Shown piece after piece: positions 11,000-59,685 of a stretch of DNA of 64,000 nt. The stretch lies in NCBI GenBank assembly GCA_965552055.1, contig CBEVQO010000001.1, forward strand, positions 256,001 to 320,000, read 5' to 3'. The position numbers and the translations under genes are program-made. The stretch's first letter is position 1. Every line of letters begins with the position of its first letter. Source of the DNA: an uncultured bacterium (GTDB lineage: Bacteria > Hydrothermota > UBA3073 > NMUJ01 > CBEVQO01). The notes beneath the pieces are model-generated. The model saw only the letters and a list, made by a program, of their open reading frames with translations. It was not told where the DNA came from and ran no database searches.

Positions 11000-11026
11000 A
11001 ATATACAAACTCCGTGACTTTGTCAA
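11000..11026 (-). promoter_or_regulatory. Promoter of the signalling operon, TTGACA-N15-TATATT
   Basis: TGTCAA 11021-11026 and AATATA 11000-11005 on the + strand. Confidence 0.6.
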
Positions 11027-11123
11027 TAATTTTTTAAAATTCATAATCCATTGCCTTTTCTTCAAAAATATACCCTGCTCTCCTTTCATATCCTCAAATT
11101 TTGTGCGATATCCGCACATTGTT

Positions 11124-11246
11124 CTAAAAACGCACACTCCTTATTGTTTTTATCAGAAATTTAACAAATGCCAGAATAATGCAAATACACACCACTATTA
11201 TACAAAACAATATCACAATTTTGATTATGACCTTCAGCATCCACAT
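11124..11246 (-). CDS. 40-aa hydrophobic membrane peptide
   Basis: MWMLKVIIKIVILFCIIVVCICIILAFVKFLIKTIRSVRF; ATG 5 nt after a TTGACA-N15-TAAATT promoter. Confidence 0.5.
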   Translation of the reverse strand: MWMLKVIIKIVILFCIIVVCICIILAFVKFLIKTIRSVRF

Positions 11247-11251
11247 CTTTA

Positions 11252-11314
11252 AATTTAGTGATAATTGAAAATTGTCAATAAAATTTGTTGACATTGTCGC
11301 ATTTTCGTTAAAGT
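11252..11314. promoter_or_regulatory. Divergent promoter pair, both with 15-bp spacers
   Basis: Minus strand TTGACA(11278-11273)-N15-TAAATT; plus strand TTGACA(11288-11293)-N15-TAAAGT. Confidence 0.65.
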
Positions 11315-11323
11315 AAAAGAAAA

Positions 11324-12817
11324 ATGCTTTTATTTTGTATTTTGCTATATATTTCGCAACATTATATGACAGGTCAAAAATATTTCTTCATTTACAAAAA
11401 CTATGAAAAAGCATTAATTGAGTTTCACAAAGCCCTCGATGAATCTTCATATGAGCTCAAAGGTGAAATCTTTCACTTTATAGGACTCTGCCATTTTTAT
11501 CTAAAACATTATGATAGTGCAATTGTGAATTTCAGCAAAACAATCGAGTATAATAAAGGTTGCGCAAGCGCTTACGCATATAGAGCAATTTGTTATTATC
11601 ACTTAAATGAAATTGAAAAAGCCAAAAATGACATTGATAAAGCTTTGAAAATGAAAAAAGTCCCTGTTTATTTCTATTTCAAAGGATTAATTTACGAAAA
11701 AATGAAAAATTATAAAGAAGCTCTGGACGCTTACAAAAATTATATTGATATGGAACCTTATGGTGAATATTGTGAAGAAGCCAGAAGAAGATTAAAGTGC
11801 ATTTTTGCAAAAATTAAAGAAGATAAAAAACCTCCAGAAATAATAATAACTTCGCAGTGGTATAATCCTCTAAAAAATGTTTACAGGATAAAATCGGATT
11901 CAATCCTTTTAGAAGGGTATGCCAAGGATGAGTCAGGGATAGATTATGTTATCATAAATGGTGAAAAGACAGGTGCCTCATTTAAAAAAGTTTTTCATAT
12001 TGATAACAAACTTACGATCTTTATAAAAGCAGTGGACAAAGCAGGAAATCAAAGTTTTAAAAAGTTAACCATAATAAAGGAGAAAGAAGGGAAAACAATT
12101 GATTTATGGCTATTCGCTATTGGCATCTCAAAGTATGCCAACCCTCATTACAATCTATTGGCGCCTGAAAATGATGTCAGAGAAATTGTGAAAATATTTA
12201 AATCAGAAACTTTGCTGTTTACGGAAGTTTTTGTAGAAACCTTATTAAACGAGAATGCGAATAGAAAAAATGTCTTAAGAAAAATGAAAGAATTTTTAAG
12301 TTCGGCTGGCGACGAAGATATTATTATTTTCTTCTTCTCTGGACATGGAGCGCGTTCAGGTAACCGAAGCGCTATGCAACTTTATGATGATTTATTAACC
12401 GCAGATGATATACAAAATGTTTTACAGAAATTATCATTTATTCCCCAGAAATGGATTTTCTTACTTGATTGTTGCTTCTCCGGCTGGATAATAAAAAGCA
12501 CGGAAGAAACAGAAGGAATAGTTGAAGAACTTATGGAAAGAATAACTGAATGTAAATTCAGATGTGTGCTTGCATCATCAAAACCAAATCAGATTTCAGT
12601 GTCACTGGGAAAACATGGTGCCTTTACTCTGGCACTTATTAAAGGACTTAAAGGCGAAGCAGATGAAGATAAAGATGGTATAATTACGATTCACGAATTG
12701 TGCAGATATGTATCTTATAAAGTGCCCATAATCACTCATGGATTACAGGAGCCTTATTTTAACATAAAGATTACAGGGACACAGATTGATGTCCCGATTT
12801 ATACTGTTAAATATTAA
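11324..12817 (+). CDS. TPR repeats, Ig-like linker and caspase-family (peptidase C14) domain
   Basis: TPR helices; AIGISKY, FFFSGHG (His), LDCCFSG (Cys), HGAFTLALIKGLKGEADEDKDGIITIHEL. Confidence 0.9.
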   Translation: MLLFCILLYISQHYMTGQKYFFIYKNYEKALIEFHKALDESSYELKGEIFHFIGLCHFYLKHYDSAIVNFSKTIEYNKGCASAYAYRAICYYHLNEIEKAKNDIDKALKMKKVPVYFYFKGLIYEKMKNYKEALDAYKNYIDMEPYGEYCEEARRRLKCIFAKIKEDKKPPEIIITSQWYNPLKNVYRIKSDSILLEGYAKDESGIDYVIINGEKTGASFKKVFHIDNKLTIFIKAVDKAGNQSFKKLTIIKEKEGKTIDLWLFAIGISKYANPHYNLLAPENDVREIVKIFKSETLLFTEVFVETLLNENANRKNVLRKMKEFLSSAGDEDIIIFFFSGHGARSGNRSAMQLYDDLLTADDIQNVLQKLSFIPQKWIFLLDCCFSGWIIKSTEETEGIVEELMERITECKFRCVLASSKPNQISVSLGKHGAFTLALIKGLKGEADEDKDGIITIHELCRYVSYKVPIITHGLQEPYFNIKITGTQIDVPIYTVKY

Positions 12818-15534
12818 ACTTTGACGCCCGCTTCTTTTAATTTGATTTGTATCATCGCTTTGACTCTTTCAGGTAAAGGATGCCAGTCAAATCCGTACTT
12901 TTGTTTATGTTCTTCCGCCCTCATTCGCAACTCCTTTTCTGTACCTTCTTCTTTATGAAGGTCGAAATATTCTTTTAACTCGTCTATATCCATTCCATTT
13001 ATTTTTTCTTCCAGTTTTTTCATTAAATCATCGTAAAAATTTCTTGCTTGCCTTATGAAATTTCCTTTGCCCTGTATTCTTCTTCCATCAAATTCGTACC
13101 AGTTACGGCTCCTCTTTACCACTCCTATTTCTATAAGAGTCCACAATAAATTTTCATCCACTTGTGCCAGACTCGGTAATATTTCGCGCATATTTGCCAC
13201 TATTTCTCTATCCATGACATCAAAATAGGAAGTCAAAGGCTCTAAAGGTTTGAATTTTTTTGCCTTAATCTCACTTTCGATTATTTCCATTGATTCTACT
13301 CTTTTTTCCCAATATGAATTAAAGTACTTCTCTAATTTCTCTTGTCCAAGCATTTCTATCTCTACACAAAATGTAAAATTGATAAACACCGCTCGATCTG
13401 TAATCCCTTCCTCTTGTTGTTCTTCAATTATATTATTTATCCTTCCTCCTGCCATTCTCTTTATATCCTGATTACCTGTTATCAAAAATTGTTCTTTGCG
13501 CGCACCTTGAGAGGTAAGCAAAAGTAAAGGGTCACTAACTCTATCGCAAATCTTACTTATCAGTTCGTTCATTTCTTTAGGATTTATTATTTTTTCTCTT
13601 ATAAGATCAGAAAGCGAAATATTTATGCTATCTATTTCTTTTTGTGCTCTCTCTTTCAACCATTGCTCACATTGTTGGGGTTCGTTCAGGAAAGTTTCTA
13701 AACTTTCACAAAAATCTCTCTTAATATCCTCGATTCTTCCTCTTATCTTTTTATTGAATATTTCTCTCAAATTAGCATCGCTCACTCCTATATATCTGAC
13801 ATTTTCGGCACGCAACATCTTTTCCCTCGCTCTTCCTCTTTCTAAATCGCATCTCTCTTTAATACTCCTTAACTTCGATTCTAATCTTCTATACTTTTCA
13901 CTTATAGGTGCTATTTCTTCCATTATTCTGCCCATCATTATATCGTATACTTCTTTACTTACCCGAGCTTCCAGACAATTTTGATGATATTGCTGTAATC
14001 TTCTGACAAAACTGGGGGCATATTTTTTAATTATTCTTCCTTTGAATAGTGTCTTCCTGCATTCCATAGCGATATTCGTGCGCATTCTTTCTAAGTCCTT
14101 TCTTTCTTGATGCACCCTTGGTTGTTTCCCTGAAAAATAATCCTGATACCTTCTTAAATATTCATTCGCTTTCTGCTCAAATCTTGCATGACATTCATTT
14201 AAAAATCTCAAAATGTCAGAAAGTGACCTATTACATATATTTAAAAAGCGACCTCTTATTTGGTTTATCACCTCATTCGCAATTTCATCCAATTCACTTT
14301 CTATTCTCCTCAATTGGTTCACAATATCCGAATTTACCTGTCTATAAACCTTTTCCATATCTGCTATTCCTTTTATTTCTCTTGAAGTAACAGCCGGAAT
14401 GGAAATCCTTTGGAATATTTCTTCAAACCTGTTTATAAAATTGTTAATTTCATTCTCATATGAAGTCGCTGTATCCGAAAGCAAATTTTCTATTGTTTTT
14501 ATTAAAAGTTCAAATTTAAGCCATTCATCTACCTCTTTTTTTGGATACTCAATTACTTCCGAATAAATCCCTCCCAATCTTTTCGAATAATCTATTGTGA
14601 TATCGCGATTTATCTGTGCATAAATTTGACCAAGTGAATCTTCGAGACCTGTGAGTAGCCGATAGATGACTTCAGAGATTATACCAAGGGCCGACAATCT
14701 TCTTCCTCCGAGGTCTACTTTGTTGTTAGAATTATCAAGTATAAACATAGTATGAAACAAAGGAGATGTAAAAACTCGAATGTTACCTCCTCCATAATCC
14801 ACCTGCCATGTTACATTTCTATTTCTATGAAAATAATTTACGTCTTTTAAAAATGCATAAAAATTGCCGATTGCACATTTTTCATCTTCTGTATATTCAA
14901 GACTTCCAGATAGAACTTCCGGCGCTATTATGAAAACCTTTAAGTAGTCAGGACCCACTTTATCACTTATCAGTCCAATTACATCAAGCAGAAGTCCACT
15001 GCCTGTTCCTCCGGATGCCGATGCAATGATACATACCATTTTTTTGCCATCAGAAACAGGAGCATTTGTTCTGGTTATATAGTTAGCAATAGTCTTTCGG
15101 TCAAAAACATGATCAATTTTTCTTTTTATTCCATCATTTACATTTTTAAAATTAAGGAATAAAGCAAGACGCCCTGCCTGACGAACCTGACCGACTCCTC
15201 CTCTCCTGGTTTCGTATGAAGGAACATAACCAGAAAACCACTTCGCAATGTGTCTTTCCTCACCTCGATGAACCCGGTTAATAATTTCCTCAACCTGTTG
15301 TTTATTTAAAACTGCCTGGATTGTGTCTATCGAAATTTCTCTTAAAAATTCGGGCTCGTCTATTTCCTGTTCAGAAGAAGTATCAATATGCAAAATGTCA
15401 ATAATGTCGGGCAATCCCGTTTCTCTGTTTAAATATTTCTCCGGAATGCGCTTCTGAATAAGATATTTCAAATATTTGCCCCCAAGCTTGCCTGTCCCCC
15501 CAAGCCCTACCACTAAAGTGGGAACCAATTTCAT
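12814..15534 (-). CDS. Tubulin/FtsZ-like GTPase domain with long helical C-terminus
   Basis: VVGLGGTG, GGVGQVRQAGRLAL, ASASGGTGSG signature loop; about 550 aa helical tail. Confidence 0.85.
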   Translation of the reverse strand: MKLVPTLVVGLGGTGKLGGKYLKYLIQKRIPEKYLNRETGLPDIIDILHIDTSSEQEIDEPEFLREISIDTIQAVLNKQQVEEIINRVHRGEERHIAKWFSGYVPSYETRRGGVGQVRQAGRLALFLNFKNVNDGIKRKIDHVFDRKTIANYITRTNAPVSDGKKMVCIIASASGGTGSGLLLDVIGLISDKVGPDYLKVFIIAPEVLSGSLEYTEDEKCAIGNFYAFLKDVNYFHRNRNVTWQVDYGGGNIRVFTSPLFHTMFILDNSNNKVDLGGRRLSALGIISEVIYRLLTGLEDSLGQIYAQINRDITIDYSKRLGGIYSEVIEYPKKEVDEWLKFELLIKTIENLLSDTATSYENEINNFINRFEEIFQRISIPAVTSREIKGIADMEKVYRQVNSDIVNQLRRIESELDEIANEVINQIRGRFLNICNRSLSDILRFLNECHARFEQKANEYLRRYQDYFSGKQPRVHQERKDLERMRTNIAMECRKTLFKGRIIKKYAPSFVRRLQQYHQNCLEARVSKEVYDIMMGRIMEEIAPISEKYRRLESKLRSIKERCDLERGRAREKMLRAENVRYIGVSDANLREIFNKKIRGRIEDIKRDFCESLETFLNEPQQCEQWLKERAQKEIDSINISLSDLIREKIINPKEMNELISKICDRVSDPLLLLTSQGARKEQFLITGNQDIKRMAGGRINNIIEEQQEEGITDRAVFINFTFCVEIEMLGQEKLEKYFNSYWEKRVESMEIIESEIKAKKFKPLEPLTSYFDVMDREIVANMREILPSLAQVDENLLWTLIEIGVVKRSRNWYEFDGRRIQGKGNFIRQARNFYDDLMKKLEEKINGMDIDELKEYFDLHKEEGTEKELRMRAEEHKQKYGFDWHPLPERVKAMIQIKLKEAGVKV

Positions 15535-16877
15535 GTTCCCTCCTCCTTCTCCTCCTCTAAAATTGATATGCTAATCCTACCTCTTACCGGGTCCACAACT
15601 GTTATCTCAAACTTATATCTGTTAAATTCTATTAATTTAGGATTGGTATCCCTTATTTCTATTTTATCTGTCTCCCGACCTTCATACCTCATTGCAGCTC
15701 CTTCACCCGAACTCACTTCAAAATAATGCTCAAATTTTTCTTCGTCAAGAAAATGCCAGATCGTAAAAGAAATCTTTTCGGGAATATTCCCCATAAATTG
15801 ACATCTTCTACCTGATTCAAATATACGGCATTTCCCTTCGGGTATCACAACTTCAATGTAATTTTTAGTTTCCCTGCTTTTACATATTCCACTGTAAACC
15901 ACAAAAATCACAATAACACCTGCAATAGCAAATAATACCCATATAGGGAAAGGTCGCTTACACAAAATTAATATTTGACCATCAGGTGGCTCGACTTCCA
16001 GCCTCACATTTTCCGCATTAAATGAGATACCAAGTTTGTACACACCCGTGTGTTTAAATCCTTTTAAGCGCAAAACAAATTCTTTTTCTTCTTTTTTACC
16101 AGTGCATATAAATGTATTCGGATAAATCTCAACTTCTGTTCCTTCGGGCAAATTTCCTTTCCATGATAAAAACACTTTCTTATTTTTCGATTTCCATGCC
16201 TCTCTTATCAAAATTTTAAATTTCCTTTCTACCAAACCTGCAGTCGGGTGTATTTTTATTTTCCTTGTTAATAATTTAATCTGAATAAAAGGAGGTATTC
16301 CTCCTGCCTGTGGTGGTATGTTATCCATTATTTCTGCGTGCGTCTGACTGGCAAACTCTTTAAGTCCCGGATGCTGAACTTTGCTCCCGTATTTTATAAG
16401 GTAAATGTAAGGTTTCACAAGCTGGAAATTTTCTTTGTAATATTTAATGATATCAGATGCAGTTACACTGGGAGACGCATTACCATAATCCGGCTCGCCA
16501 TCTGTCAAAATATATAACCTACATTCCCTGTCAGGATATGCCTGATAAAGCTCTTTTAGCCTTTTCAACGCAAGGTCTATCGCTTCCCACATCCTCGTAT
16601 AGCGCTGATTGAACTTCAAAGCGTCAATTTTTCTGCAAATCAAAGGTTTATTCTCATCGCTTATCACTTCATTGATGAATTCTTCATAAGAATCTCCAAA
16701 TTTTATTATTACTATTTTTTCGCCATTCTGTCGTGACAAAATATAATTTTTGAGGTCGCGCTTCACCAGGTAATCGAGTTTGCGCTGATGCATACTGCCC
16801 GATACATCCACAAGGAAAATATAATTTTGAAAATATGTTAACTTTTGCATGATAACTGCAAGTAAAATTATCCACAT
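15531..16877 (-). CDS. vWA-domain single-pass membrane protein
   Basis: MIDAS DVSGSM..T..LTDG; TM IWVLFAIAGVIVIFVVYSGI; AGGAGG SD; stop overlaps the tubulin-like ATG. Confidence 0.85.
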   Translation of the reverse strand: MWIILLAVIMQKLTYFQNYIFLVDVSGSMHQRKLDYLVKRDLKNYILSRQNGEKIVIIKFGDSYEEFINEVISDENKPLICRKIDALKFNQRYTRMWEAIDLALKRLKELYQAYPDRECRLYILTDGEPDYGNASPSVTASDIIKYYKENFQLVKPYIYLIKYGSKVQHPGLKEFASQTHAEIMDNIPPQAGGIPPFIQIKLLTRKIKIHPTAGLVERKFKILIREAWKSKNKKVFLSWKGNLPEGTEVEIYPNTFICTGKKEEKEFVLRLKGFKHTGVYKLGISFNAENVRLEVEPPDGQILILCKRPFPIWVLFAIAGVIVIFVVYSGICKSRETKNYIEVVIPEGKCRIFESGRRCQFMGNIPEKISFTIWHFLDEEKFEHYFEVSSGEGAAMRYEGRETDKIEIRDTNPKLIEFNRYKFEITVVDPVRGRISISILEEEKEEGT

Positions 16878-16926
16878 ATTCCCTCCTTTTTTAAATTATC
16901 ATACAAATTTTTCTTCATCTCTGTAA

Positions 16927-16953
16927 ATTATAGAAAAAGCATCAAAATGTCAA
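16927..16953 (-). promoter_or_regulatory. Promoter of the vWA/tubulin-like operon, TTGACA-N15-TATAAT
   Basis: Both hexamers match consensus exactly, 15-nt spacer. Confidence 0.75.
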
Positions 16954-17003
16954 TAAAAAATTTAAAATTTTATTTAATGAGCCTTTTAAATTTAATAACA
17001 TCT

Positions 17004-20783: not shown

Positions 20784-20791
20784 CGTTCCCC

Positions 20792-21286
20792 CTATTTTCC
20801 ATGGAATTTATGAAAAGCTATTATCGCTTCCATAAATTCTGTTAATTTTTCTTTATCTTTTTCCTCACAATTGTCTATTAAAGTCTGAGTAACCTCAAAG
20901 AACAAATCATCAATTACCCCCTTGCCTTTAGCATATGCGAGTAACGGCATCAGCCTCTGCAAATCATTTTTTATATCCGTCGAAGTTTTGGTCATACGCT
21001 TCAGTTCGTTAAAAAATTTTCTCAGTTGTCGCATCTTAATATCAGAACAATAAGCAACCATTTCGGCCAATCCATCAAGTCCCACTCTCACTTTTTCAGA
21101 AAGATTAAAAAAATCGCGGGCTTTGTTTTTTATGTATCTCTTAATATCCTCCTTGAGGTTTTTCTTTTCTCTTTGAAGTACTTGATTTTGTTGCTTTTGT
21201 TCGCGTTTATCAGTAATTTTTTTAATTTCTTCGTTTCTTCTTTTTATTTTTTTAAACTCTCTTTGCAACTTTTCAAACTCATTCAT
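20792..21286 (-). CDS. csm2: Type III-A small subunit Csm2
   Basis: QLRKFF, PLLAYAKG, FMEAIIAFHK; lies between cas10 and csm3. Confidence 0.9.
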   Translation of the reverse strand: MNEFEKLQREFKKIKRRNEEIKKITDKREQKQQNQVLQREKKNLKEDIKRYIKNKARDFFNLSEKVRVGLDGLAEMVAYCSDIKMRQLRKFFNELKRMTKTSTDIKNDLQRLMPLLAYAKGKGVIDDLFFEVTQTLIDNCEEKDKEKLTEFMEAIIAFHKFHGK

Positions 21287-23663
21287 GACCCCTCCTTGTT
21301 AGCATTAAAGTCCAGCATACGGGTATTTTTAAATATTTAAACATATTCAAAGCCTTTGTACTCGTCAGAAGGCACTCTTTTAACCTTTCTCTTACTTCTT
21401 CTTTAACATTCCTCACCAGATGATACAACGCAAGTGGCACAAATGCATGAAATCTGTTACCATCACCAAATATTTTCCTTGCTTTCAATAAGAAATAAAG
21501 TAAATTCCTTGAAATTTTCTTCTGCTCAATATTTTCTTTCATCTCAAGTGTAAAATCTTTTATTTTTAGTTCTTTAAATTCTTCCCATGTTATTGCAGCA
21601 TCAAACAATGTTAAGCGATTTTTCCCTTCCTCTTTGGAACGCATCAAAGCTCTGCCTGCCTCTTCTGATGCTAGCAACACTGGTAAATGTGGACGCTCAA
21701 ACACTATCCCGCACGAAATAGAGAAATCAGCACAACTGCAAAATTCTTTGAACTTATCGTTGAATTCAACAGCAAAATCAGGTAAACATGAAGCAGGTCC
21801 TATAAGCATAATATCATCACCTCCTGCAAAAACAAGATAAATAGCATTTTCCTCTTTCAACTTATAAAAATACTTTTTATCAAGCAAATCCGTATTTTTA
21901 CTGTATTCCTTACAGAATAAGTTAAGATAGCCCGAGAAGAAATAATCCAGAAATCTTATAAAGGTACAATAGGCGGATAAACGCAATTTCCTGCAAACTT
22001 CCCTCAATGTTATCCCAAGATTATCCATATCTATTTTTAAATACCCTATCTTCTTATCTCCCAAACTCATCTCCGAAATAGTATCAAGTGATAGAACAGT
22101 ATCTGGCGCTTCCTCAAAACCTTTCTCGTTTTTAAATTTTATATTTGCTATGGGTACAGCATTACCCACACAGTATATTCCAAAAATACCATCGGGTTTA
22201 TTTAAAGAAAGAACATCAATTACATCATCGTGCTTCAAAAATTCTTTAGCATCTCTTTTATCGCTCAAAAGATATACAACGCCAAATTTGTCAAATTTTA
22301 TTAATTTCACTCCGCCCTTAAGAGTCGCTCCTTTTACAGGATTTTTAGCAAAAACAATATAAGAGCATTTTGGTAGAAATGAACCTATTTCTTCAAATTG
22401 TTTGCATCTATCACATCTATCATCAACAACTGTTTTTTGCGGTAACTTACAAATAGGGCATTCGTTAACATCTTCTATCTGGAAGAAATTAGTATCTTTT
22501 ACTATCATCGAAAGTTTATTGCTTTTCCTCTCTTCTATCATCCTGCGTGCTTTCTCATCTGCTACCCTGAATTTGTCAGCAAGACCTCCGGAACCCTCCT
22601 CCATTCTTAATTCATAAGAAGAATAACCGACCACAAGAATAAGATTGCCATAAAACAAATACCATAACCATTCGTTAATTTCCTTTACAATTTCCTCTAA
22701 TTTGTTTACCGTATCTTCCTTTTTTGGAATCTCTATGATAAAATTACCACCTTTGGCAAACAACAAATTGGTAAGAGATAAATCAAATTCGTTAAGAATG
22801 TACCTTGCGAGTACATCCTGTAAAATCTGAAGATAAAAAGACCTGCCTCTCAACATTTTACTACCCTGATCAGCTTTTATCTCTTTTGTCTTTAATTGAC
22901 GGAAGACAAAATCCTGAATCCCTGACAGGTCGCCCACCACATGAAGCATTTCGGTGGCTCCTTCACAGTAAGCATCAGCTAACACAGCCGTGAGCTTTAA
23001 ATGGTCATAAAGTGAACATTGGGTTTTCTCCATAGAAGTAGAAGGAACAAAGGTCGCATACACCTCCAAAAAATGAAGAAACTGATTCGTGAAACGGTCT
23101 ATATCTTTTATACTCTTGATGTTTACACCATCTTGCACTACCTTGTTTTTAATCTGCATACACAAATTTTTATATTTCATTTCGGGATTTTCTGTTTTAT
23201 TTTCCAATGGAAAAATATTTTCCAGTTTAAGCACATCTATTTCGTATATGCACTGCTCACAGAAAGGAGAATAAAGCCAGTATTCTTCCTTTGACTTCTC
23301 TTCTGTCCTGTCAGTAGCAGCTGCTAATCTATCGGCATATTGTATAAATCTCATTGCATCTTGTAACTCTTCCTTTGTTTCACTCAACGGCAGATGATGT
23401 TTGCTAATTAAAATATCAAGGTCACTCTTTTCTTCTTCACTTAAGCATTCTATATATTGCTGGAAAAATTCGTAGAAATCTGCAGAATAAGCTGCATGTC
23501 TATGGGTATACTCACCTTTTTCATTTTCTGGACAAACAGCGGGTACGATTTCATTTTCGATTTCGACCCATGAATTCCTTTTAAATGCATATTTTCCGCG
23601 ATGGCTCATTTTCCCTATGTCGTGTAATAAGGCAGCGATGCGAACAAGTTTACGCATTCGCAT
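21279..23663 (-). CDS. cas10: Cas10/Csm1 with HD nuclease and intact cyclase palm
   Basis: ALLHDIGK, SLYDH, GDLSGIQDFVF, LRGRS, CPIC..CDRC, DMDNLG, FAGGDD. Confidence 0.95.
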   Translation of the reverse strand: MRMRKLVRIAALLHDIGKMSHRGKYAFKRNSWVEIENEIVPAVCPENEKGEYTHRHAAYSADFYEFFQQYIECLSEEEKSDLDILISKHHLPLSETKEELQDAMRFIQYADRLAAATDRTEEKSKEEYWLYSPFCEQCIYEIDVLKLENIFPLENKTENPEMKYKNLCMQIKNKVVQDGVNIKSIKDIDRFTNQFLHFLEVYATFVPSTSMEKTQCSLYDHLKLTAVLADAYCEGATEMLHVVGDLSGIQDFVFRQLKTKEIKADQGSKMLRGRSFYLQILQDVLARYILNEFDLSLTNLLFAKGGNFIIEIPKKEDTVNKLEEIVKEINEWLWYLFYGNLILVVGYSSYELRMEEGSGGLADKFRVADEKARRMIEERKSNKLSMIVKDTNFFQIEDVNECPICKLPQKTVVDDRCDRCKQFEEIGSFLPKCSYIVFAKNPVKGATLKGGVKLIKFDKFGVVYLLSDKRDAKEFLKHDDVIDVLSLNKPDGIFGIYCVGNAVPIANIKFKNEKGFEEAPDTVLSLDTISEMSLGDKKIGYLKIDMDNLGITLREVCRKLRLSAYCTFIRFLDYFFSGYLNLFCKEYSKNTDLLDKKYFYKLKEENAIYLVFAGGDDIMLIGPASCLPDFAVEFNDKFKEFCSCADFSISCGIVFERPHLPVLLASEEAGRALMRSKEEGKNRLTLFDAAITWEEFKELKIKDFTLEMKENIEQKKISRNLLYFLLKARKIFGDGNRFHAFVPLALYHLVRNVKEEVRERLKECLLTSTKALNMFKYLKIPVCWTLMLTRRGHE

Positions 23664-23668
23664 CATAA

Positions 23669-23695
23669 ATTATATGTCCACAGAAGGGTTGTCAA
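23669..23695 (-). promoter_or_regulatory. cas10 operon promoter TTGACA-N15-TATAAT, ATG 5 nt downstream
   Basis: Exact hexamers; no room for an SD. Confidence 0.75.
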
Positions 23696-23702
23696 GAAAA
23701 AA

Positions 23703-24632: not shown

Positions 24633-24729
24633 ATTTAAATTTAATGCAGATAAAAGAATGTCAAGATTTAAACATATTAGAAAAATTACAATTTTATGCA
24701 CAAAGAAAAACCTGTCCCTCCTATTAAGG

Positions 24730-25156
24730 CAGGCAATCCCCCTATTAAGGGTCAAAAACAGGCAAACATTTCGGCGGTGGATAGGTAAAGTTAAAATTGC
24801 AATCCCCCTATTAAGGGTCAAAAACTGTGTTATCCGCTTCAGTAATCGAAACGAGATAGACATTGCAATCCCCCTATTAAGGGTCAAAAACACGATTTGC
24901 ATTTAAAATATCGTTGTCCATTAGATAGTTGCAATCCCCCTATTAAGGGTCAAAAACATTATGGAAGGCCTGAGCACAGTTGCTAAAAAGCTAGGTTGCA
25001 ATCCCCCTATTAAGGGTCAAAAACGAGGCAAAGATGAGAGTCATGGAAATTTGGAAGAAGTTGCAATCCCCCTATTAAGGGTCAAAAACCTATTATGAAA
25101 CACAAAAAGAAAGTTGTTTTATTCGCGTTGCAATCCCCCTATTAAGGGTCAAAAAC
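24730..25156 (-). CRISPR. CRISPR array 1: 7 repeats, 6 spacers; 30-bp repeat GTTTTTGACCCTTAATAGGGGGATTGCAAC (minus strand)
   Basis: Repeats start at 24730 (degenerate), 24796, 24862, 24928, 24995, 25060, 25127; spacers 35-37 bp; degenerate end left, leader right. Confidence 0.97.
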
Positions 25157-25287
25157 CCGTTTTTCAAGGAGCTCTTTTTCATTATTTTATAATGATTTTT
25201 GCAAACTGTCAAGTCCATTTTTTGAAAAAATTCCGTGTCGACCCCCAATAGCCCTGAAACCCCAGGGGATCGACAACCCGCATCCAC
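25157..25287 (-). promoter_or_regulatory. Leader of CRISPR array 1
   Basis: AT-rich; TTGACA at 25212-25207 with a -10-like box; GTCGACCCC...GGGGATCGAC inverted motif typical of leaders. Confidence 0.75.
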
Positions 25288-26385
25288 TTAAATTATTTTT
25301 TCAAGTTCATCCTGAAGGAACCTTTTGTGTAAAAGATGTTCACATGTCGTTGTTAAAATCAGTTCAATTCCAATCTCCCCATCACTATAATTAATTTTTA
25401 TTTTCTCGGGAAGCTCATCCGAATATCTGTCTTTATGTATTTTTGTTTCGGTTCCCTTTTGCAGACGCTTTACTTCTATTTTTTTAATATATTTTGTTTT
25501 TTCCAGCTTTCTAATGAATTCCTTAAATCCCCGGGGACGATGATGACCCTCAATGCCTACCTCTTCGATTTCTCCATCGTATCCGGGAGGTCTTATTTTT
25601 GATTTTTCGTAATAATCTTCATTTCGTTTGTAAGCTTCCCAGTAGATGTATCCAAGAGCAGAAAGCCAGATTTTTCCTTCAACTTCATCGATGAGTGAAT
25701 GGATATCATCCAGTTTGCCTGTTTTCTTTACTATTTTTTCTTTTTCAAGCTCCTTTTTTGCAGCGAGCAATGCTATCGCTTCCCTGTATTTGTGTATGAT
25801 TTCTAAATCTATTGTCACTGGTGGACTAGGTAAGTCAATTATATATCCGAATCTTTCATGCATATAGAAAACGGGGACTTTGTGAACCTGACCGAAGGCA
25901 GAAGCATAAGATACCTGAGCTTTATATCCGCCTGTGGCATTTATTCCCCATGAGCCTTCTGTTTCCCTGCGTTTTATGAAAGCAAGTTTTTTCACAAGCT
26001 CTACCAGTCCTTTTCTTCTAAAGGTATCGGGGTCTGCATCGGTGAGCCCTTCTATTTTTAATATCTCAACCTTTGATTTCCATTTCTTTTCTATGTAACA
26101 CTTAAGAAACTTCCCTATAATCTCACCGTCAGAGGTATCTGAAACGAGAAGGTAAACTTTTTGAAGTTCTTTGATATACTTTTGCTCTAAAAGGGATTGT
26201 ATTGAGTTTATTTCTGCTCCCAGGATTTTTTCCGATGGTTCCAATCCTTTAAGGCAATGATATAACTTGTCGAATTCCCTGTTCTGAAGTAGAGACAACA
26301 AATCTCTTTTGCCCTCTCTTTCGAGATTTGTTTTGAAGCTTGTACCCACGGTTACGGCAAGCACTTTTAAATCGAAGCGCCACAT
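25288..26385 (-). CDS. APE2256-family CARF protein with winged helix and extra C-terminal domain
   Basis: VTVGTS, AEINSI, LLVSDT..G, INATGGYKAQ, FYMHERF..IDLP; own TTGACA-N15-TATAAT promoter 26402-26428. Confidence 0.85.
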   Translation of the reverse strand: MWRFDLKVLAVTVGTSFKTNLEREGKRDLLSLLQNREFDKLYHCLKGLEPSEKILGAEINSIQSLLEQKYIKELQKVYLLVSDTSDGEIIGKFLKCYIEKKWKSKVEILKIEGLTDADPDTFRRKGLVELVKKLAFIKRRETEGSWGINATGGYKAQVSYASAFGQVHKVPVFYMHERFGYIIDLPSPPVTIDLEIIHKYREAIALLAAKKELEKEKIVKKTGKLDDIHSLIDEVEGKIWLSALGYIYWEAYKRNEDYYEKSKIRPPGYDGEIEEVGIEGHHRPRGFKEFIRKLEKTKYIKKIEVKRLQKGTETKIHKDRYSDELPEKIKINYSDGEIGIELILTTTCEHLLHKRFLQDELEKII

Positions 26386-26441
26386 ACTCCCCCCTTCGCA
26401 TATTATACACCAAATAACTTATTGTCAAGAAAATCCAAAAA

Positions 26442-27394
26442 TTCCCAATCCCCAAAGAGGGTCTTCAACAGTATATTAAGGAGATACGGGTTAGCAACAT
26501 AAGAGTGTTTCAATCCCCCAAAGAGGGTCTTCAACTCAGAAAATCGTTTCGCTCAATGACATTAAACAATTGTTTCAATCCCCCAAAGAGGGTCCTCAAC
26601 GCACGGTATTCGCACCTTCCAAGTTAGCATACGCAAGTTTCAATCCCCCAAAGAGGGTCTTCAACGAAGAGAGAATGAGAACAGATAAAAAAGAGTTTCC
26701 AATGTTTCAATCCCCCAAAGAGGGTCTTCAACTTAACCTATACGCCGGGATTCAAGAAAACGAAAACGACGTTTCAATCCCCCAAAGAGGGTCTTCAACT
26801 TTAATCCAGAAATAGTCAAAATGGAAGAATACGCTAGTTTCAATCCCCCAAAGAGGGTCTTCAACACAACAAAACATCTTCGCGTTCATACAGCGCAACT
26901 TTGTTTCAATCCCCCAAAGAGGGTCTTCAACAAATAGTTAAAGGTCCCAACCTCGAACCTGAAGAAGGGTTTCAATCCCCCAAAGAGGGTCTTCAACGTG
27001 AGACCTGATGAGTTGTATTCTCTTGGGATATTGAGTTTCAATCCCCCAAAGAGGGTCTTCAACTAGGCAAAGAGGTAGTGGAATTTTTGATGAAAGACAA
27101 GTTTCAATCCCCCAAAGAGGGTCTTCAACAAAAGGAGGTATGATGAGTATGCTGTCACAAATACTAGTTTCAATCCCCCAAAGAGGGTCTTCAACTTAAA
27201 ACTGATGGAAAATTTTTAATAATTGCTAAAGAGTTTCAATCCCCCAAAGAGGGTCTTCAACAAAGATAAAATTTTATGCCCACCACGTAGATACAGAGTT
27301 TCAATCCCCCAAAGAGGGTCTTCAACTAAATTGTATGAAAGAGGCTTAGAATTTTTGAAGGCAAAGTTTCAATCCCCCAAAGAGGGTCTTCAAC
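26442..27394 (-). CRISPR. CRISPR array 2: 15 repeats, 14 spacers; 29-bp repeat GTTGAAGACCCTCTTTGGGGGATTGAAAC (minus strand)
   Basis: Repeats start at 26442 (degenerate), 26507, 26572, 26637, 26704, 26771, 26837, 26903, 26969, 27035, 27101, 27167, 27233, 27298, 27366. Confidence 0.97.
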
Positions 27395-27536
27395 CGCAAA
27401 AAATTTGTTATTATTCTTTAATTTAGGTATCATTTTATCAAAAATTTTTGTCAAACCTCCGGTTTCATTTTCAAAGAACTCACAATATAATTGATTTCAC
27501 CCATCATACATTATAACCTTATTCTGTGAATGTCAA
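27395..27536 (-). promoter_or_regulatory. Leader of CRISPR array 2 with TTGACA-N15-TATAAT promoter
   Basis: TGTCAA 27531-27536 and ATTATA 27510-27515, pointing into the array. Confidence 0.75.
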
Positions 27537-28161: not shown

Positions 28162-28232
28162 CACAATATTATTAGCATTTTTTGCGAATGTCAATTATTT
28201 TTATTGACAAATTCTTTTCACAATTATAATAA

Positions 28233-30835: not shown

Positions 30836-30908
30836 CTTTTAATTTACTCTTATTTTTAACCTGTCAACCATTTTCTTGACAAAAGTGAATTTTGAGTAAA
30901 AATTTTTG

Positions 30909-33633: not shown

Positions 33634-33790
33634 ATTTAATGAAGGCTATAGGTTATAATCCTATACTCCCGGAAGAAAACCAATTGCATCACTATCATCT
33701 ATGGAAGATGGTGGGACGGAGTATTGCTTTTTCTTTTAAAAATCAACTGTAAATTAGCTTGACTACATGAAAATAGAGTTAAATTTAGTG

Positions 33791-35755: not shown

Positions 35756-35786
35756 ATAAAATTTTAAAAAAATAATAGTTTTGTCA

Positions 35787-35900
35787 ATAATTTTTAGCCC
35801 CTCCTCCCAGTCCCCTCCTTCCCATTTGCACACCCCTCCTTACACTCGGGGTGTGACAAAAAACCCTTATGTAATATACTCGCTTCGCTCGTATTAAAAA
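35787..35900. repeat. About 114-bp dispersed repeat, copy 2 (same orientation)
   Basis: Aligns with 33519-33633 including the ACACCCC/GGGGTGT stem. Confidence 0.85.
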
Positions 35901-35942
35901 TCTTATTCTCTTGACATACTGATATAGAAATTAAAATTGGAG

Positions 35943-41913: not shown

Positions 41914-42013
41914 TACCTATTATAATCATTTTATGCCTTTGTCAAGAAAAAATTTCAAAATTTTTTGACTTGACAAATCAGTATTTTCTTAAAATTAAGA
42001 TAAAGGAGGGGGT

Positions 42014-48060: not shown

Positions 48061-48186
48061 GCAGTGATATATGGAACTTGCCAAGGAATGAAAAAAGAAT
48101 TTTTAGTTGCAATTTTCTCAAAGACAGATGACAATGTGGGTGTATCTTTCTCTTTTCCTGCTATTTCAAAAAGGAGGAGTGAGAAA

Positions 48187-48267
48187 ATGAAATACCTGTG
48201 GGCTGTCATTTTAATAATATTTTTCTATCTTGCATTGAATTTTGTGCAAAAGATTAAATTTGCATGA
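48187..48267 (+). CDS. 26-aa hydrophobic peptide
   Basis: AGGAGG SD; MKYLWAVILIIFFYLALNFVQKIKFA. Confidence 0.35.
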   Translation: MKYLWAVILIIFFYLALNFVQKIKFA

Positions 48268-48621: not shown

Positions 48622-48800
48622 AAACTTATATTATATTTCTCACAACTTTCACAATTGCAGATTCCTTGCTTTATTTATTGTTAAAATATACAAATTTAAT
48701 CTGGATGCAAATTTTCATAATGCTTTTTTGTATCAATTTTCTGTGCGATAAAAAGAATAACTTGACAAATTCATAATTTTTATTAAAATTTATCCTGGAG

Positions 48801-49832: not shown

Positions 49833-49843
49833 TTAAATAATAT

Positions 49844-50236: not shown

Positions 50237-50242
50237 CGGTAA

Positions 50243-50298
50243 ATTATAATCATCAATGTGTTATGTCAAGCTTGACATTTGCATAATTGTTATAAAAA
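50243..50298. promoter_or_regulatory. Back-to-back promoters sharing the palindrome TGTCAAGCTTGACA
   Basis: Minus strand TTGACA-N15-TATAAT-N6-ATG(50236); plus strand TTGACA 50272-50277 before 50305. Confidence 0.7.
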
Positions 50299-50304
50299 AT
50301 AAAG

Positions 50305-54967: not shown

Positions 54968-54988
54968 CTTTATATTAAAATCAAAATA

Positions 54989-57211
54989 CTATTTTGTCAA
55001 CCTTATTTGTAATATGCTTAAAATTTTCAAAAGGATTAGTAGCATACATGTATTTTTAAGTCCCAGCAATGGGAATATAATCACACCGCCGGTTAATCCT
55101 CCGAGCCAGCCACCTATTAGGTCAGCAGCATAAAGCAAACCAGCAGACTCAGATATTGATTCACTGCCTCTGAGATAAATTTTGTTACACAGAGGAAATT
55201 CAAGCCCAAGTAAGAAGCCCGAAATTAAATTTAGCAAAATAAAGAGAGGCAAATTTAAAATACCGTGAATCGAAATCAGAAGCAGAGCGAAAATCAAAAT
55301 TAGAAATTCAATTGCGGTTAATATTTTAAAATCATTTTTTATCGTTCTTAAATTTTTTGTAGAAAAATATCCCCCTGTCGCTGTGCCCGCCATAAATGAA
55401 GAAGTCAGAATGCCAATCCAGTAATAAAGATATCCGTAAGTTATTTGAAATAAAAAACTGAGAATTAAACTAAAAATCATCCCACAAAATCCGGAAGATG
55501 CTATTACGAAAAACATAACCCATTTTTTGTCCTTCTTAAAAGATTTTATAATGAAAATCAAACTCAGTGCAAGAATCATTAAAAGAATTTGCCATAGTTT
55601 TATTTTTTCGATAGTTTTAAAGATTTTACAGAGATAAGGAGCAAACTGTGCATCCCAGTATCTCAAAGTATGCCACACAGAAATCGGATGGTAATCGGAA
55701 TTTATGCCCTTTATGTAACCTTTGAGAGAACCGTAAAACCAGTCGAACCACCTTTTCGAAAGTTTATACTCGATATAAAACGGTGTGATAAAATTCGTCT
55801 TCAAATCATATTTTTTTAAATTTTTGATTAAAAACTGAGGTGAAAGGTTTATTTCTTCGTCTGATGCAAGATAAATATTTACATCGCCCGGTATTACTTT
55901 CACGAAGTTGAAAGATTTTTGAAGGGTGTTCAGGATGCAACCTATTAAAGATTTCAGTTCTCTTGATAAATAAACAGAAGAGCCGGGTGTATGGAGGACC
56001 AGAATTCCTTTTTTGTTTAATTTTTGTTTTGCAAGTTCAAAGAATTCTTTTGAGAAGAATCTATTTATTTGCAATTCAGAAGGTGTTGAGAATCCCACGA
56101 ATATTATGTCGTATTTTTCTTTGGTTTCTTTAAGGAAAAATCTTGCGTCTGTGTATTTTATATTAACTCTATTATCTTTTAATTCCTTTTCGGTCAATGT
56201 TGTTTTGTATTTATGCAGCATTTTCATTACTTCTGGGTCGAGTTCAGCGTAATCTATTTTTTCGACAGGATATTTTAATATTTCTGCGATGATACCCCCT
56301 GCTCCGCCACTTAGTATTAAAATTTTCCGGGGCATAGGATGTGCAAGCATGGGGAAATGTGTTATTTCTTCTACAAACGCAATATCGGGTATCGGTGTGG
56401 TGATAAAGGGAGTGCCATCATAATAAAATGTATATTGCTCTTCTTCTTTTATGACAGCGATGTTGCCAAAGATAGAATTCCTGTAATCTATGACATTGTA
56501 AGGGGAAAATTGCTTTTTTATAGAATTCCAGTGAATTTTCAATGTGACACCGAAAAATATACAAAATGAAAAAAGAAAAAGTATAAAGGTCATCAGGTAA
56601 AATAAAGGTTTTTTAAAATTTTTATCCTGCGTGATAAAGAAAATAAGGCAAAGGAAGAGGTTTAATGCGGATATTATGAAAGATGTATTGAAGGAATTTG
56701 TTAGTGGGATAAAGAGGTATGTTATCAAAATACCGCCCGCAATGGTACCAGCTGTTTCGAATACATAAACTTTCCCGATGGATTCCGCTTTATCTTCACC
56801 TGCAATTTCTGCAAGTATTTTGCATGAATAAGTAAAAAGAGCACCATGCGAGAAGCTCACAGGGAACAAAATAAAGAGAGAAGAATAGATAACCGGCAAT
56901 AAACCGATTACTTCGCCCGGCATCACCCCTAATATATGGCGTAAAATCCTGGTTAAATAAATCGAAAGAGGAAAGGTTAAAGAGAAAATGATTTGAGTAA
57001 TTAAGAAAATTTTTATCTTATCTTTTTGCTTTTCAATTGTTTTACCGAGAAAATATGCTCCGGCTGCTTCTGCTATTAGCCAGTTGGCAAGTATTATCCC
57101 GATAGTTAATTCATTACCCGAGAAAATTACAAGTAGTTCGCGGATAAGAAGAGTTTCTGCAATCATTCCACTTATTCCTATGAGAAAAATTAATGAGACG
57201 AAAAGGTTCAT
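54989..57211 (-). CDS. Membrane protein fused to a spermidine-synthase-like domain
   Basis: TM blocks flanking ILILSGGAGG, YAELDP, DARFFL; LYAADLIGG. Confidence 0.85.
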   Translation of the reverse strand: MNLFVSLIFLIGISGMIAETLLIRELLVIFSGNELTIGIILANWLIAEAAGAYFLGKTIEKQKDKIKIFLITQIIFSLTFPLSIYLTRILRHILGVMPGEVIGLLPVIYSSLFILFPVSFSHGALFTYSCKILAEIAGEDKAESIGKVYVFETAGTIAGGILITYLFIPLTNSFNTSFIISALNLFLCLIFFITQDKNFKKPLFYLMTFILFLFSFCIFFGVTLKIHWNSIKKQFSPYNVIDYRNSIFGNIAVIKEEEQYTFYYDGTPFITTPIPDIAFVEEITHFPMLAHPMPRKILILSGGAGGIIAEILKYPVEKIDYAELDPEVMKMLHKYKTTLTEKELKDNRVNIKYTDARFFLKETKEKYDIIFVGFSTPSELQINRFFSKEFFELAKQKLNKKGILVLHTPGSSVYLSRELKSLIGCILNTLQKSFNFVKVIPGDVNIYLASDEEINLSPQFLIKNLKKYDLKTNFITPFYIEYKLSKRWFDWFYGSLKGYIKGINSDYHPISVWHTLRYWDAQFAPYLCKIFKTIEKIKLWQILLMILALSLIFIIKSFKKDKKWVMFFVIASSGFCGMIFSLILSFLFQITYGYLYYWIGILTSSFMAGTATGGYFSTKNLRTIKNDFKILTAIEFLILIFALLLISIHGILNLPLFILLNLISGFLLGLEFPLCNKIYLRGSESISESAGLLYAADLIGGWLGGLTGGVIIFPLLGLKNTCMLLILLKILSILQIRLTK

Positions 57212-59590
57212 CTATTCTCTTACAAGTTCCCTTTCTATTTTCAGTCTTTTGGCAGCTGACTCAGATATTCCGAGAAGTGCGCAAACAACATCCCAGAGTT
57301 TTACTTTTCCGAGTTGCATTAAAATTTCAATATGGTCTTCTTTTTTGGTTATCATGAGTACGGATTTTCTTACATTTTTTCCTTTGAAAATGACTTCTTT
57401 CCTTTTCATAAAATCGTCAATTTCTCTCTGTGATATTCTGGCGCCATAAATTTTATAGATCACTTTCTGGAAGGTTTCAAATAATGATTTTGCTTCCTCG
57501 TAAAATGGTTGAGCTTCCAGCACTCTTATTCCTTTTGGTAATGCTTTGTTTAAAAGATATACAACATCGCTTCTCACAGGGTATTCCATTTCCATATCGA
57601 AATAATCCGATTTGCTTATCACACCCACTGGTATGGGAGGAGAGAAAGAAAGTTGAGGTCTTGGTGTAAATCCTTTTGAATATGCCACAGGTAGCCCTGT
57701 GCGCCTTACTGCTCTCGTTATAGCCCTAACAAGGTCAAGATGAGAAAGATAGCGGGCTCCTTCACCTTTTTCAAACCTCACTCTAAAATTCAGTTTCACA
57801 GAAGAAAGGGGTTTCACCCTTCTTACTCTGTCACCATAACTTATAACATCTTCTTTTTGCTCTCTATCATAAGGGATTAAGAAGTCACCTTTACACACAC
57901 CGCATCCAATACATCCCGTTATTCTGCAATCCCTTGTGAAATCTTTTTCTCTCCTTTCTTTTTTCAAAAATTCTTTTGATACACCTGTATCTATTATGTC
58001 CCATGGTAGCTCTTTATCTTCGTCTAATTCTTTTGTGTATTCTTTTGGGTCTATTCCTGCTTCTTCGAAACTTTCTCTCCATTTTTTGAAATTGAAATAT
58101 TCTGACCATTCATCGAATCTCTGTCCTTTTCTGTAAGCCAGTTCTATTACTTTTGCTATCTTTCTGTCGCCCCTTGCAATTACACACTCTAAGAAAGATG
58201 CTCTTGCATCCCTGTAATCTACTTTTATTTTTTTGAATTCTCTCAAACTTCTCTTTATGTATTTTTCGATGTTGAATAATTCTCCTGTTTCTTTTTGTTT
58301 TTCCCACTGGAATGGGGTGTGGGGTCGGGGGACGAAGGGGGAAATTGATACATTCAAATTTTTATCCTTTAAAATTTTTGATATCCTTTTGCATAAGTCA
58401 ATAATAGCTTCAATATCATCCTGTTCTTCATCTGGCAATCCTATCATGAAATAAAGTTTTAAGTGGGTGAAATTGTATTTTCTTACATTTTCGGCAGATT
58501 TAAAAATTCCATCTTCCGATATTTCTTTGTTTATTCTTCTTCTCAATCTATCTGTGCCTGCCTCAGGTGCAAGGGTAACCCCTCCTTTCCCCAAAAAGCG
58601 CGCAAGTTCATCATCCAGACTATCGCCTCTCATAGAAGGGAATGCAAAATTCACTTTTAAATCGAGTTTCTGAAGCATTTTGCAGAGAGTATGAATCTGG
58701 GAATGGTCAGATGCCGACAGGGATAAAAATGATACTTCTTCGTAGCCTGTATTTTTAAGTCCAATTTTCATCAAGTTTATTATCTGTTCTGCTGTTCTTT
58801 CTCTATAAGGTCTGAAGCAATATCCTGGCTGGCAGAATCTGCATCCACGGGTACATCCCCGTGCTATCTCCACAACGAGTCTGTCCTGTATCACCTCTGT
58901 AAGGGGGACAAGTGGAGCATTTGGGAAAAATTCATCGGTTAACTCAGGGAGCCATTGCCTCTCTGCTCTGTTATTGATGGAAGGCACATATACTCCTTTA
59001 ACTTTTGATAATTCTTCAAGTATTTTATATCTTTTCATTCCTTTGCATTCTTTTAATACATCTATAAACTGTGGCAAAACTGCTTCTGCTTCGCCAACAA
59101 TGAAGCAATCGAAGAAGTCAGCAATTGGTACGGGATTAAATGCACCGAGTCCACCACCTAAAATTATAGGATGACCTTCTTTTCTATCTTCTGCATAAAT
59201 GGGGATTCCTCCGAGTTCCAGAATATTTAAAACATTTGTGTAATTCAATTCATATTGCAATGAAAATCCAATGCAGTCGAATTTTTTAATTTCTGTTTGA
59301 GATTCAAGTGAAAAAAGGGGTATTTTTCTGCTCCTTAATTTTCTTTCAAAATCAGGTAATGGTGCAAAAACTCTTTCGCAAAGAACATCATCCATTTTGT
59401 TTAGTAAGTAATAAATTAATTTTAAGCCGTAAGAGCTCATACCAGTTGCATAAGCATCCGGGAAAGCAAGCAGAAAATGAACTTTTACATCTTCCCAATT
59501 TTTATGAAAGCTTCCTATTTCATGGTTCAAATACTGAGCCGGTCTTTTTATCGTTGGCAAAATATTTTCAAATTCTTTTCTCCAATCCAT
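57212..59590 (-). CDS. TIGR03960-type radical SAM protein fused to a radical-SAM-linked C-terminal domain
   Basis: FPDAYATGMS, EIARGCTRGCRFCQ, TLAPEAG, YLSHLDL..GFTPRP; start MDWRK after TTGACA-N15-TAAATT (59599-59625). Confidence 0.85.
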   Translation of the reverse strand: MDWRKEFENILPTIKRPAQYLNHEIGSFHKNWEDVKVHFLLAFPDAYATGMSSYGLKLIYYLLNKMDDVLCERVFAPLPDFERKLRSRKIPLFSLESQTEIKKFDCIGFSLQYELNYTNVLNILELGGIPIYAEDRKEGHPIILGGGLGAFNPVPIADFFDCFIVGEAEAVLPQFIDVLKECKGMKRYKILEELSKVKGVYVPSINNRAERQWLPELTDEFFPNAPLVPLTEVIQDRLVVEIARGCTRGCRFCQPGYCFRPYRERTAEQIINLMKIGLKNTGYEEVSFLSLSASDHSQIHTLCKMLQKLDLKVNFAFPSMRGDSLDDELARFLGKGGVTLAPEAGTDRLRRRINKEISEDGIFKSAENVRKYNFTHLKLYFMIGLPDEEQDDIEAIIDLCKRISKILKDKNLNVSISPFVPRPHTPFQWEKQKETGELFNIEKYIKRSLREFKKIKVDYRDARASFLECVIARGDRKIAKVIELAYRKGQRFDEWSEYFNFKKWRESFEEAGIDPKEYTKELDEDKELPWDIIDTGVSKEFLKKERREKDFTRDCRITGCIGCGVCKGDFLIPYDREQKEDVISYGDRVRRVKPLSSVKLNFRVRFEKGEGARYLSHLDLVRAITRAVRRTGLPVAYSKGFTPRPQLSFSPPIPVGVISKSDYFDMEMEYPVRSDVVYLLNKALPKGIRVLEAQPFYEEAKSLFETFQKVIYKIYGARISQREIDDFMKRKEVIFKGKNVRKSVLMITKKEDHIEILMQLGKVKLWDVVCALLGISESAAKRLKIERELVRE

Positions 59591-59658
59591 CAAATATAAA
59601 TTTACTCTAAAATCCAAAATGTCAATATTTATTGATAAAAAATTTCGAAAAAATAAGC

Positions 59659-59685
59659 TTGACAAATTGAAATTTTGAATATAAT
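59659..59685 (+). promoter_or_regulatory. speDE promoter TTGACA-N15-TATAAT
   Basis: Exact hexamers, 15-nt spacer. Confidence 0.75.

Follow-up and report, generated by a model that had tools for sequence, protein, structure and literature searches.

The 17-bp spacer between the −35 and −10 boxes is regarded as almost invariant in bacterial transcription, and the residues that set it are untraced in the literature searched. Promoters of σ28 (FliA), of the form TAAA-N15-GCCGATAA, have a nominal 15-bp spacer, and MerR-family promoters have long spacers of 19 to 20 bp that are gene specific and corrected by an activator. Across 49 species with mapped transcription start sites, 17 bp predominates and spacers are mostly of 16 to 18 bp, with the start 7 nt behind the −10 box (PMC12641261, Kuo et al.). 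For Escherichia coli σ70, a 15-bp spacer is described as lying within the natural range of 15 to 21 bp and as still giving high expression (PMC8695583). Here, we examine σ70-type promoters of the form TTGACA-N15-TATAAT in a 64,000-nt stretch of DNA (the window; G000:C1:256001-320000) from the genome of an uncultured bacterium, G000. Whereas 15-bp spacers in E. coli form the lower tail of a distribution with its optimum at 17 bp, in G000 they are the mode and 17 bp is near background. This order-specific 15-bp σ70 promoter is real and is undescribed in the literature searched, in which no paper reporting housekeeping promoters with a mode of 15 bp was found (subscription journals were mostly outside its coverage).

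The G000 assembly comprises 2.23 Mb in 15 contigs (35.6% GC; 97% complete), and its lineage is WOR-3, judging from a same-order sigma factor that clusters with proteins so named. DNA sequencing runs with matching contigs are labeled hydrothermal vent or sediment, where labeled; no RNA run was among those listed, which counts neither for nor against expression. The order is represented in our phylum comparison set of 242 genomes, each at least 80% complete, by three genomes, G000 and those of its sister family f2 (G001 and G002); sigma and residue comparisons also include G003.

Nine exact TTGACA/TATAAT pairs are present in the window, every one at 15 bp; the other spacings between 8 and 25 bp have none, against a chance expectation of 0.04 exact pairs per spacing. 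An earlier sequence-only reading of this DNA had listed eight of them, together with nine looser TTGAC(A/T)-N15-TAnnnT sites and five exceptions at 14, 16, and 17 bp; all were found in place with the spacers it gave, and each points into an open reading frame (ORF) or a CRISPR array. Loose TTGAC[AT]-N-TAnnnT matches in the window number 3, 21, 2, and 10 at 14, 15, 16, and 17 bp; of those at 17 bp, 6 belong to sites that also read at 15 bp. Three further loose 15-bp matches (16482, 46299, and 62205) lie within ORFs and are probably due to chance.

The genome-wide histogram likewise peaks at 15 bp and not at 17 bp, in agreement with the sequence-only reading. Exact pairs occur 7, 121, 27, 7, and 4 times at 14 to 18 bp and 0 to 6 times at other spacings, with 1.5 expected, and 113 of the 121 exact 15-bp sites are intergenic. 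With the looser TTGACA-N-TAnnnT pattern, the counts are 416, 93, and 106 at 15, 16, and 17 bp. A two-base misreading of ordinary 17-bp promoters, or an artifact of assembly, is an exceedingly unlikely explanation of these sites and is largely refuted. Such a misreading could draw on the 56 of 416 TTGACA-N15-TAnnnT sites that also have a reading at 17 bp, which make up 56 of the 106 readings there; the other 360 sites have none, and the remaining 50 readings at 17 bp, which lack a 15-bp reading, correspond to background (20 to 45 at other off-peak spacings). Against an artifact, 53 of the 121 exact-site spacers contain no homopolymer of 4 or more, and the sites at 23669, 26402, 27510, and 28204 show no internal gaps in contigs from two other runs, X1 and X2 (this check covered 4 of 11 listed runs, and X1 or X2 may itself represent the source sample).

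The position of the functional −10 box can be approached through start codons and tRNA genes. Behind loose N15 sites (n = 487), the first ORF ATG lies at 5, 6, or 7 nt in 88, 48, and 26 cases, respectively, with a second peak at 17 to 18 nt. When we anchored instead on 290 leaderless-type ATGs (those with a TAnwwT box 5 to 7 nt upstream), TTGAC was found at spacers of 15, 16, and 17 bp in 159, 23, and 10 cases; the same procedure gave a peak at 16 bp in G150 (14/28) and a weak one at 17 bp in G013 (3/25). An N15 site lies no more than 120 nt upstream of 23 of the 47 tRNA/tmRNA genes, and 18 of these 23 sites end 6 to 11 nt ahead of the mature end, whereas a 17-bp reading by itself is confined to a single site that serves two genes. 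Were the −10 box two bases further down, the start would fall within eight mature tRNAs. Because of these tRNA gaps and the leaderless ATG gaps, we infer that the functional −10 box is at the 15-bp position, on which three proxies agree. The N15 sites are very probably active housekeeping promoters, a prediction made from their context, which includes the tRNA/tmRNA genes and, in the window, map and speD. For the rRNA promoter, the 16S start was not located using one motif. Leaderless genes appear to be common in G000, with an ATG 5 to 7 nt behind the −10 box at about half of the N15 promoters; these ATGs are often preceded by G and often occur as ATGATG.

In most respects, these promoters resemble those of σ70/σA, sharing the −35 and −10 consensus, an upstream A/T tract, a spacer end that is T rich and then G rich, use at tRNA genes, and a start about 6 to 7 nt behind the −10 box, here inferred from the ATG and tRNA gaps. 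They differ in a mode of 15 bp, which falls outside 17 ± 1 bp, and in the position of the TG dinucleotide, which is at −16/−15 instead of −15/−14 (119/421 and 20/421 G000 promoters, respectively). In G013, TG is at −15/−14 in 39/74 promoters, and in G150 it is at −16/−15 in 15/75. The G000 spacer also has an A/T pattern anchored to the −35 box, which the f2 spacer lacks. A FliA-like sigma is encoded by G000 (by inspection), but neither the TAAA nor the GCCGATAA box matches the G000 logo, and the N15 sites precede housekeeping genes. The likeness to MerR-regulated promoters is limited to a nonoptimal spacer between consensus boxes, which here is short and genome-wide. These genomes would be scored wrongly by promoter models built on E. 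coli training data, and the polymerase and its promoters could form a pair that is partly orthogonal to σ70.

Promoter counts across the phylum, which cover spacers of 15, 16, and 17 bp, set this order apart. TTGACA-N-TAWAAT sites number 253, 47, and 17 at these spacings in G000, compared with 0 to 3, 1 to 9, and 146 to 265 in the 8 genomes of family f4 and 0 to 6, 137 to 324, and 11 to 35 in the 40 genomes of f17 and f38; at 15 bp, each of the other 241 genomes has no more than 16. The f2 genomes have few TAWAAT sites, and their −10 box is TAwwTT at the same 15 bp, whereas that of G000 is mostly TAwAAT (283 versus 90 TAwwTT). TTGACW-N15-TAWWTT sites number 90 in G000, 69 in G001, and 49 in G002 (11, 1, and 3 in reversed controls) and no more than 23 in other genomes of the phylum. 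In 665 kb of G001, TAwwTT counts are 3, 32, 11, and 4 at 14 to 17 bp, with only 2 TAwAAT sites at 15 bp; in G002, counted by hand, about 47 of 88 matches are at 15 bp and 21 are at 16 bp. The 15-bp mode thus marks the order, being found in all three of its genomes in the set, and other families are at 16 or 17 bp. A lineage at 15 bp with relatives sharply at 16 and 17 bp offers a natural test of what sets promoter length. Family f3 was also considered as a 15-bp lineage and is not supported as one, since its counts are low and mixed (16/9/4, 12/12/4, and 7/15/8) and 400 kb of G004 has no peak at 15 bp. Families f26, f27, and f30 (G080-G097 and G108-G112) have few consensus sites at 15 to 17 bp with either type of −10 box and may use another spacing or consensus.

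Six sigma region 4 matches were found in G000, including RpoD, encoded behind dnaG, and a short group 2-like sigma. RpoD (C7:57352-59100) has regions 1.1, 1.2, 2, 3, and 4 (Pfam) in addition to dnaG-rpoD synteny. The indels that the sequence-only reading had proposed to look for in RpoD and the beta flap did not appear. There is no net length change across RpoD regions 2.4 to 4 (W433 to R584 spans 152 residues, versus 150 to 152 in 29 relatives), and the region 4.2 recognition helix aligns unchanged to solved SigA chains. Among 29 RpoD rows, the end branch of this protein is the longest (0.67), its identity in regions 2.4 to 3.0 is 40%, versus 70% common to the others, and its best other match has no more than 51% identity among the 120 matches listed; in genome and metagenome contigs, a search for close relatives returned only the same protein or distant sigmas. 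Among the variants listed (33 more were not), synonymous changes account for 9 of the 12 rpoD codons altered at the strain level and 15 of the 20 altered at the level of relatives, with relative contigs at a depth of 2 to 3; by these counts, the gene is under purifying selection and not decaying. The N terminus (C7:57376-57800) appears by eye to contain two tandem region 1.1 repeats.

The substitutions in G000 RpoD include T440M, R441K, V454P, and E458N, the last three at residues that contact the spacer. In Table 3 of Bae et al., conservation across 1002 primary sigmas is 100% for R441, V454, and E458 (PMC4593229), and the same paper shows the first two next to the bases of the extended −10 element. 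The shift of TG to −16/−15 in G000 matches the alteration of these two residues. In three genomes from 16-bp lineages (G029, G035, and G023), RpoD carries V454A/S and E458D, and G035, with V454A and E458D, is a family mate of G150; these changes mirror the extended −10 residues lost in G000.

The short sigma of G000 (C5:66580-67407) has 265 residues, lacks region 1.1, and lies in a degP-sigma-M23 cluster. Only short group 2-like and extracytoplasmic function (ECF)-type sigmas occur in G001 and G002; no RpoD was found in G001 to G003, where the short sigma was the only group 1/2-like sigma found. Because dnaG runs straight into an unrelated gene in both G001 (C89) and G002 (C20), rpoD has been lost at its locus, and without it the short sigma would have to act as the primary sigma of f2. 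A sole short sigma without region 1.1 is thus a feature of G001 and G002 and not of G000, which carries both sigmas, as do most other families of the phylum (f9 and f39 give one match). In Bacteroidota, too, the primary sigma lacks region 1.1, and the TAwwTT box of f2 resembles the −33/−7 promoter box TANNTTTG of that phylum (PMC12632263). The likeness is partial, since the upstream box here is TTGAC(A/T) at a short spacing and G000 still has RpoD. TAwwTT in f2 and TAwAAT in G000 at one spacing fit two different sigmas, and the short sigmas of G000 and f2 are alike in region 2.3, yet the genomes prefer different −10 boxes. Our reading is that G000 relies on RpoD, and f2 on the short sigma.

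The main rival reading is that the short sigma beside degP became the housekeeping sigma in an ancestor of the order and itself imposes the 15-bp spacing, with RpoD kept in G000 as a specialized paralogue. This would accord with its being the only group 1/2-like sigma found in G001 to G003, which peak at 15 bp, with its span from region 2.4 to region 4.2, which is shortest in G000 (148) and f2 (149), with the divergence of G000 RpoD, and with the Bacteroidota precedent (PMC12632263). On the other hand, most other families of the phylum carry a short sigma and have no 15-bp class; the short sigmas of f5 and f6 have nearly the same span (149 to 150) in genomes that peak at 16 bp or split between 16 and 17 bp; the −10 preferences of G000 and f2 differ despite the similarity in region 2.3; and G000 rpoD is intact, adjoins dnaG, and is under purifying selection. 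On balance, we regard this alternative as possible but doubtful. Two related ideas were pursued and dropped. For gene conversion of RpoD region 2.4 by the short sigma, the evidence was not decisive (mean of 7.2 versus 6.6 identical residues of 16), and a small 15-bp short-sigma regulon in other families was not apparent, as the genes behind 19 of 20 N15 sites were mixed and there was no TAWWTT class.

Should two sigmas indeed share one spacing, the core polymerase would be the simplest common cause. We compared the C-terminal part of RpoB and the N-terminal part of RpoC at columns whose conservation among outgroups is 85% or more (25 and 31 rows). The beta flap of G000 has no indel, and 13 columns differ in both G000 and f2 (9 in RpoB and 4 in RpoC). 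Identical changes include TPKG to TPRG in the flap, Q to R in a GGK-Q motif near the C terminus, and E30D in the beta-prime zipper (Taq numbering throughout for the zipper); E30D is present in G000 to G003 and absent from 26 of 27 outgroup rows. G000 alone also has R35K, a change recorded in 5 of 834 beta-prime sequences in Bae et al., who place zipper residues Y34 and R35 on the −17 phosphate (PMC4593229). The zipper has been described as touching spacer DNA and supporting promoter binding (PMC3173786). We regard the zipper, flap, and switch-region changes as candidates, with no cause implied. In f2, rpoB and rpoC are not adjacent (G001:C18 and C31; G002:C62 and C115). In G000, rpoB lies at C1:192481-196095, rpoC at C1:188466-192518, and rpoA at C1:155196-156242.

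We give about an even chance to an order-wide holoenzyme geometry that is partly set by the core and is read in G000 by RpoD. The RNA polymerase of this WOR-3 order would hold the sigma domains about 2 bp closer together than usual, as a holoenzyme property common to two different sigmas and hence partly core set; E30D, TPKG to TPRG, and the switch-region changes would be the core candidates. The remodeled RpoD of G000 would probably do most of the reading, having coadapted by giving up extended −10 contacts (R441K, V454P, and E458N). A bolder form, which we hold tentatively and with somewhat less than even confidence, is that the core itself has been regauged in one order, so that any σ70-family factor reads 2 bp (about 7 angstroms and 70 degrees) shorter. 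If so, one family could discard RpoD and the RpoD of the other would have been driven to drop otherwise invariant contacts; with its sister families fixed at 16 and 17 bp, the phylum would then offer a natural ruler series whose promoter length is set by a few residues of the zipper, the flap, and sigma region 3.0. Of the original proposal that the primary sigma or polymerase of this lineage has a shorter spacing geometry, the 15-bp housekeeping spacing has held up (genome-wide peak, tRNA genes, and start codons), and its proposed cause is not shown.

Several observations weigh against a core-set geometry read by RpoD. No indel in RpoD or the flap accounts for 2 bp, and these proteins are marked instead by substitutions, some of which would be expected to be shared by descent alone because both lineages have long branches. 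The TIGR02393 score of G000 RpoD is under the cutoff (284.9 versus 354 bits), and it is the short sigma whose span is reduced in the order (148 to 149, versus 151 to 152 in RpoD and in the short sigmas of other classes). TAwwTT and TAwAAT sites in G000 share one logo, so one sigma may read them all, and that single sigma could be the short one. E30D recurs in f17, f38, and G127, all peaking at 16 bp, and the families that bear it may represent one event; E30 is retained in many 16-bp families, so that shortening does not require E30D. A zipper P29A change, promising in 28 genomes, failed as a cause phylum-wide (residues read among 150 listed of 239 matches), since A accompanies a 17-bp peak in f20-22, f24, f28, and f29, and P a 16-bp peak in f32, G128, and G129.

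A shift without an indel in RpoD or the flap, together with the A/T pattern anchored to the −35 box in the G000 spacer, might also point to a general accessory factor, either sigma remodeling or DNA bending, that repositions sigma region 4 on ordinary subunits. We consider this quite unlikely, given that the f2 spacer lacks the pattern, that RpoD and the core are altered at DNA-facing residues, and that no candidate factor was found (one CarD motif was tried and gave no match).

DNA topology provides a further alternative, in which an ordinary polymerase works on an overwound chromosome (with reverse gyrase and no working gyrase) that phases boxes 15 bp apart. G000 has reverse gyrase, and its sole type IIA A subunit lacks a GyrA box, which gyrase needs for supercoiling according to PMC8216471; its DNA may therefore be relaxed, and short spacers are reported to be favored on relaxed DNA (PMC9303308). 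However, our own arithmetic on the twist model of that paper (34 degrees per step, with 17 bp optimal at −0.06) gives 16 bp for relaxed DNA, and 15 bp would need about +0.065. In addition, G001 and G002 retain the GyrA box yet peak at 15 bp, and G038, with reverse gyrase and no gyrA match, peaks at 17 bp (0/2/28). Reverse gyrase alone was rejected as the cause, because G026 and G038 both have it and both peak at 17 bp. Topology may contribute in G000, but it is unlikely to be the cause, and the overwound-chromosome explanation as a whole is very unlikely. The loci concerned in G000 are C1:27338-28651 and C4:72923-73426; its type IIA A and B genes are unlinked, and from its gene content G000 may be a second bacterium that, like Aquifex, lacks a functional gyrase.

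Among the exact sites of the window, leaderless arrangements are seen at 23669-23695 (minus strand; ATG at 2 and 5 nt), which serves cas10/csm1 (TIGR02578) and is gap free in the X2 contig; at 28204-28230 (plus; ATG at 2 and 5 nt), which is divergent to 28166-28194 and gap free in an other-run contig; at 41919-41945 (minus; GTG at 5 nt and ATG at 8 nt), ahead of a member of a sodium-dependent transporter family; at 50243-50269 (minus; ATG at 6 nt); and at 61677-61703 (minus; ATG at 6 nt), the ninth exact site, which lies beyond the range of the sequence-only reading and precedes the methionine aminopeptidase gene (map). The site at 26402-26428 (minus; gap free in the X1 contig) has an ATG at 16 nt after a G-rich run, and that at 59659-59685 (plus) has the ATG of the adenosylmethionine decarboxylase gene (speD) at 55 nt. 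The site at 27510-27536 (minus; other-run contig gap free) points into a CRISPR array of 15 repeats (26433-27396). At 16927-16953 (minus) and at the looser site 11252-11278 (minus; −10 box TAAATT), the nearest ATG opens a short frame only, and the long ORF starts 49 nt (from 16877) and 114 nt away, respectively.

Among the other looser 15-bp sites, those at 11000-11026 (minus; TATATT) and 11288-11314 (plus; TAAAGT; divergent to 11252) have an ATG at 12 and 9 nt, respectively. A start codon follows at 5 nt at 24638-24664 (minus; TAAATT; GTG), 30841-30867 (minus; TAAATT; ATG), 33759-33785 (plus; TTGACT-N15-TAAATT; ATG), 35761-35787 (minus; TAAAAT; GTG), and 35911-35937 (plus; TAAAAT; ATG), and the site at 59599-59625 (minus; TAAATT) has an ATG at 8 nt that opens a B12-binding radical SAM gene. 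A degenerate N15 site divergent to 30841 (30876-30902; plus) lies 6 nt ahead of mutS. Among the exceptions, 41970-41995 (plus; 14 bp) has an ATG at 18 nt after a Shine-Dalgarno-like run, 48762-48789 (plus) has 16 bp, and 25184-25212 (minus), with a 17-bp reading, points into a second CRISPR array of at least 6 repeats (24800-25156). The other two 17-bp readings, 28166-28194 and 54972-55000 (both minus), also fit a degenerate 15-bp register with an ATG 6 nt downstream.

Back-to-back divergent promoter pairs are frequent in the window, with −35 boxes 2 to 33 bp apart (11252-11314, 28166-28230, 30841-30902, 41919-41995, 50243-50298, and 59599-59685). The two CRISPR arrays (24800-27400) have different repeats, lie beside the type III-A cas10/csm1 gene (21279-23666), and show spacer differences from contigs of other runs. 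The ORF at 11324-12817 matches a caspase-like domain (NF047832) below the cutoff.

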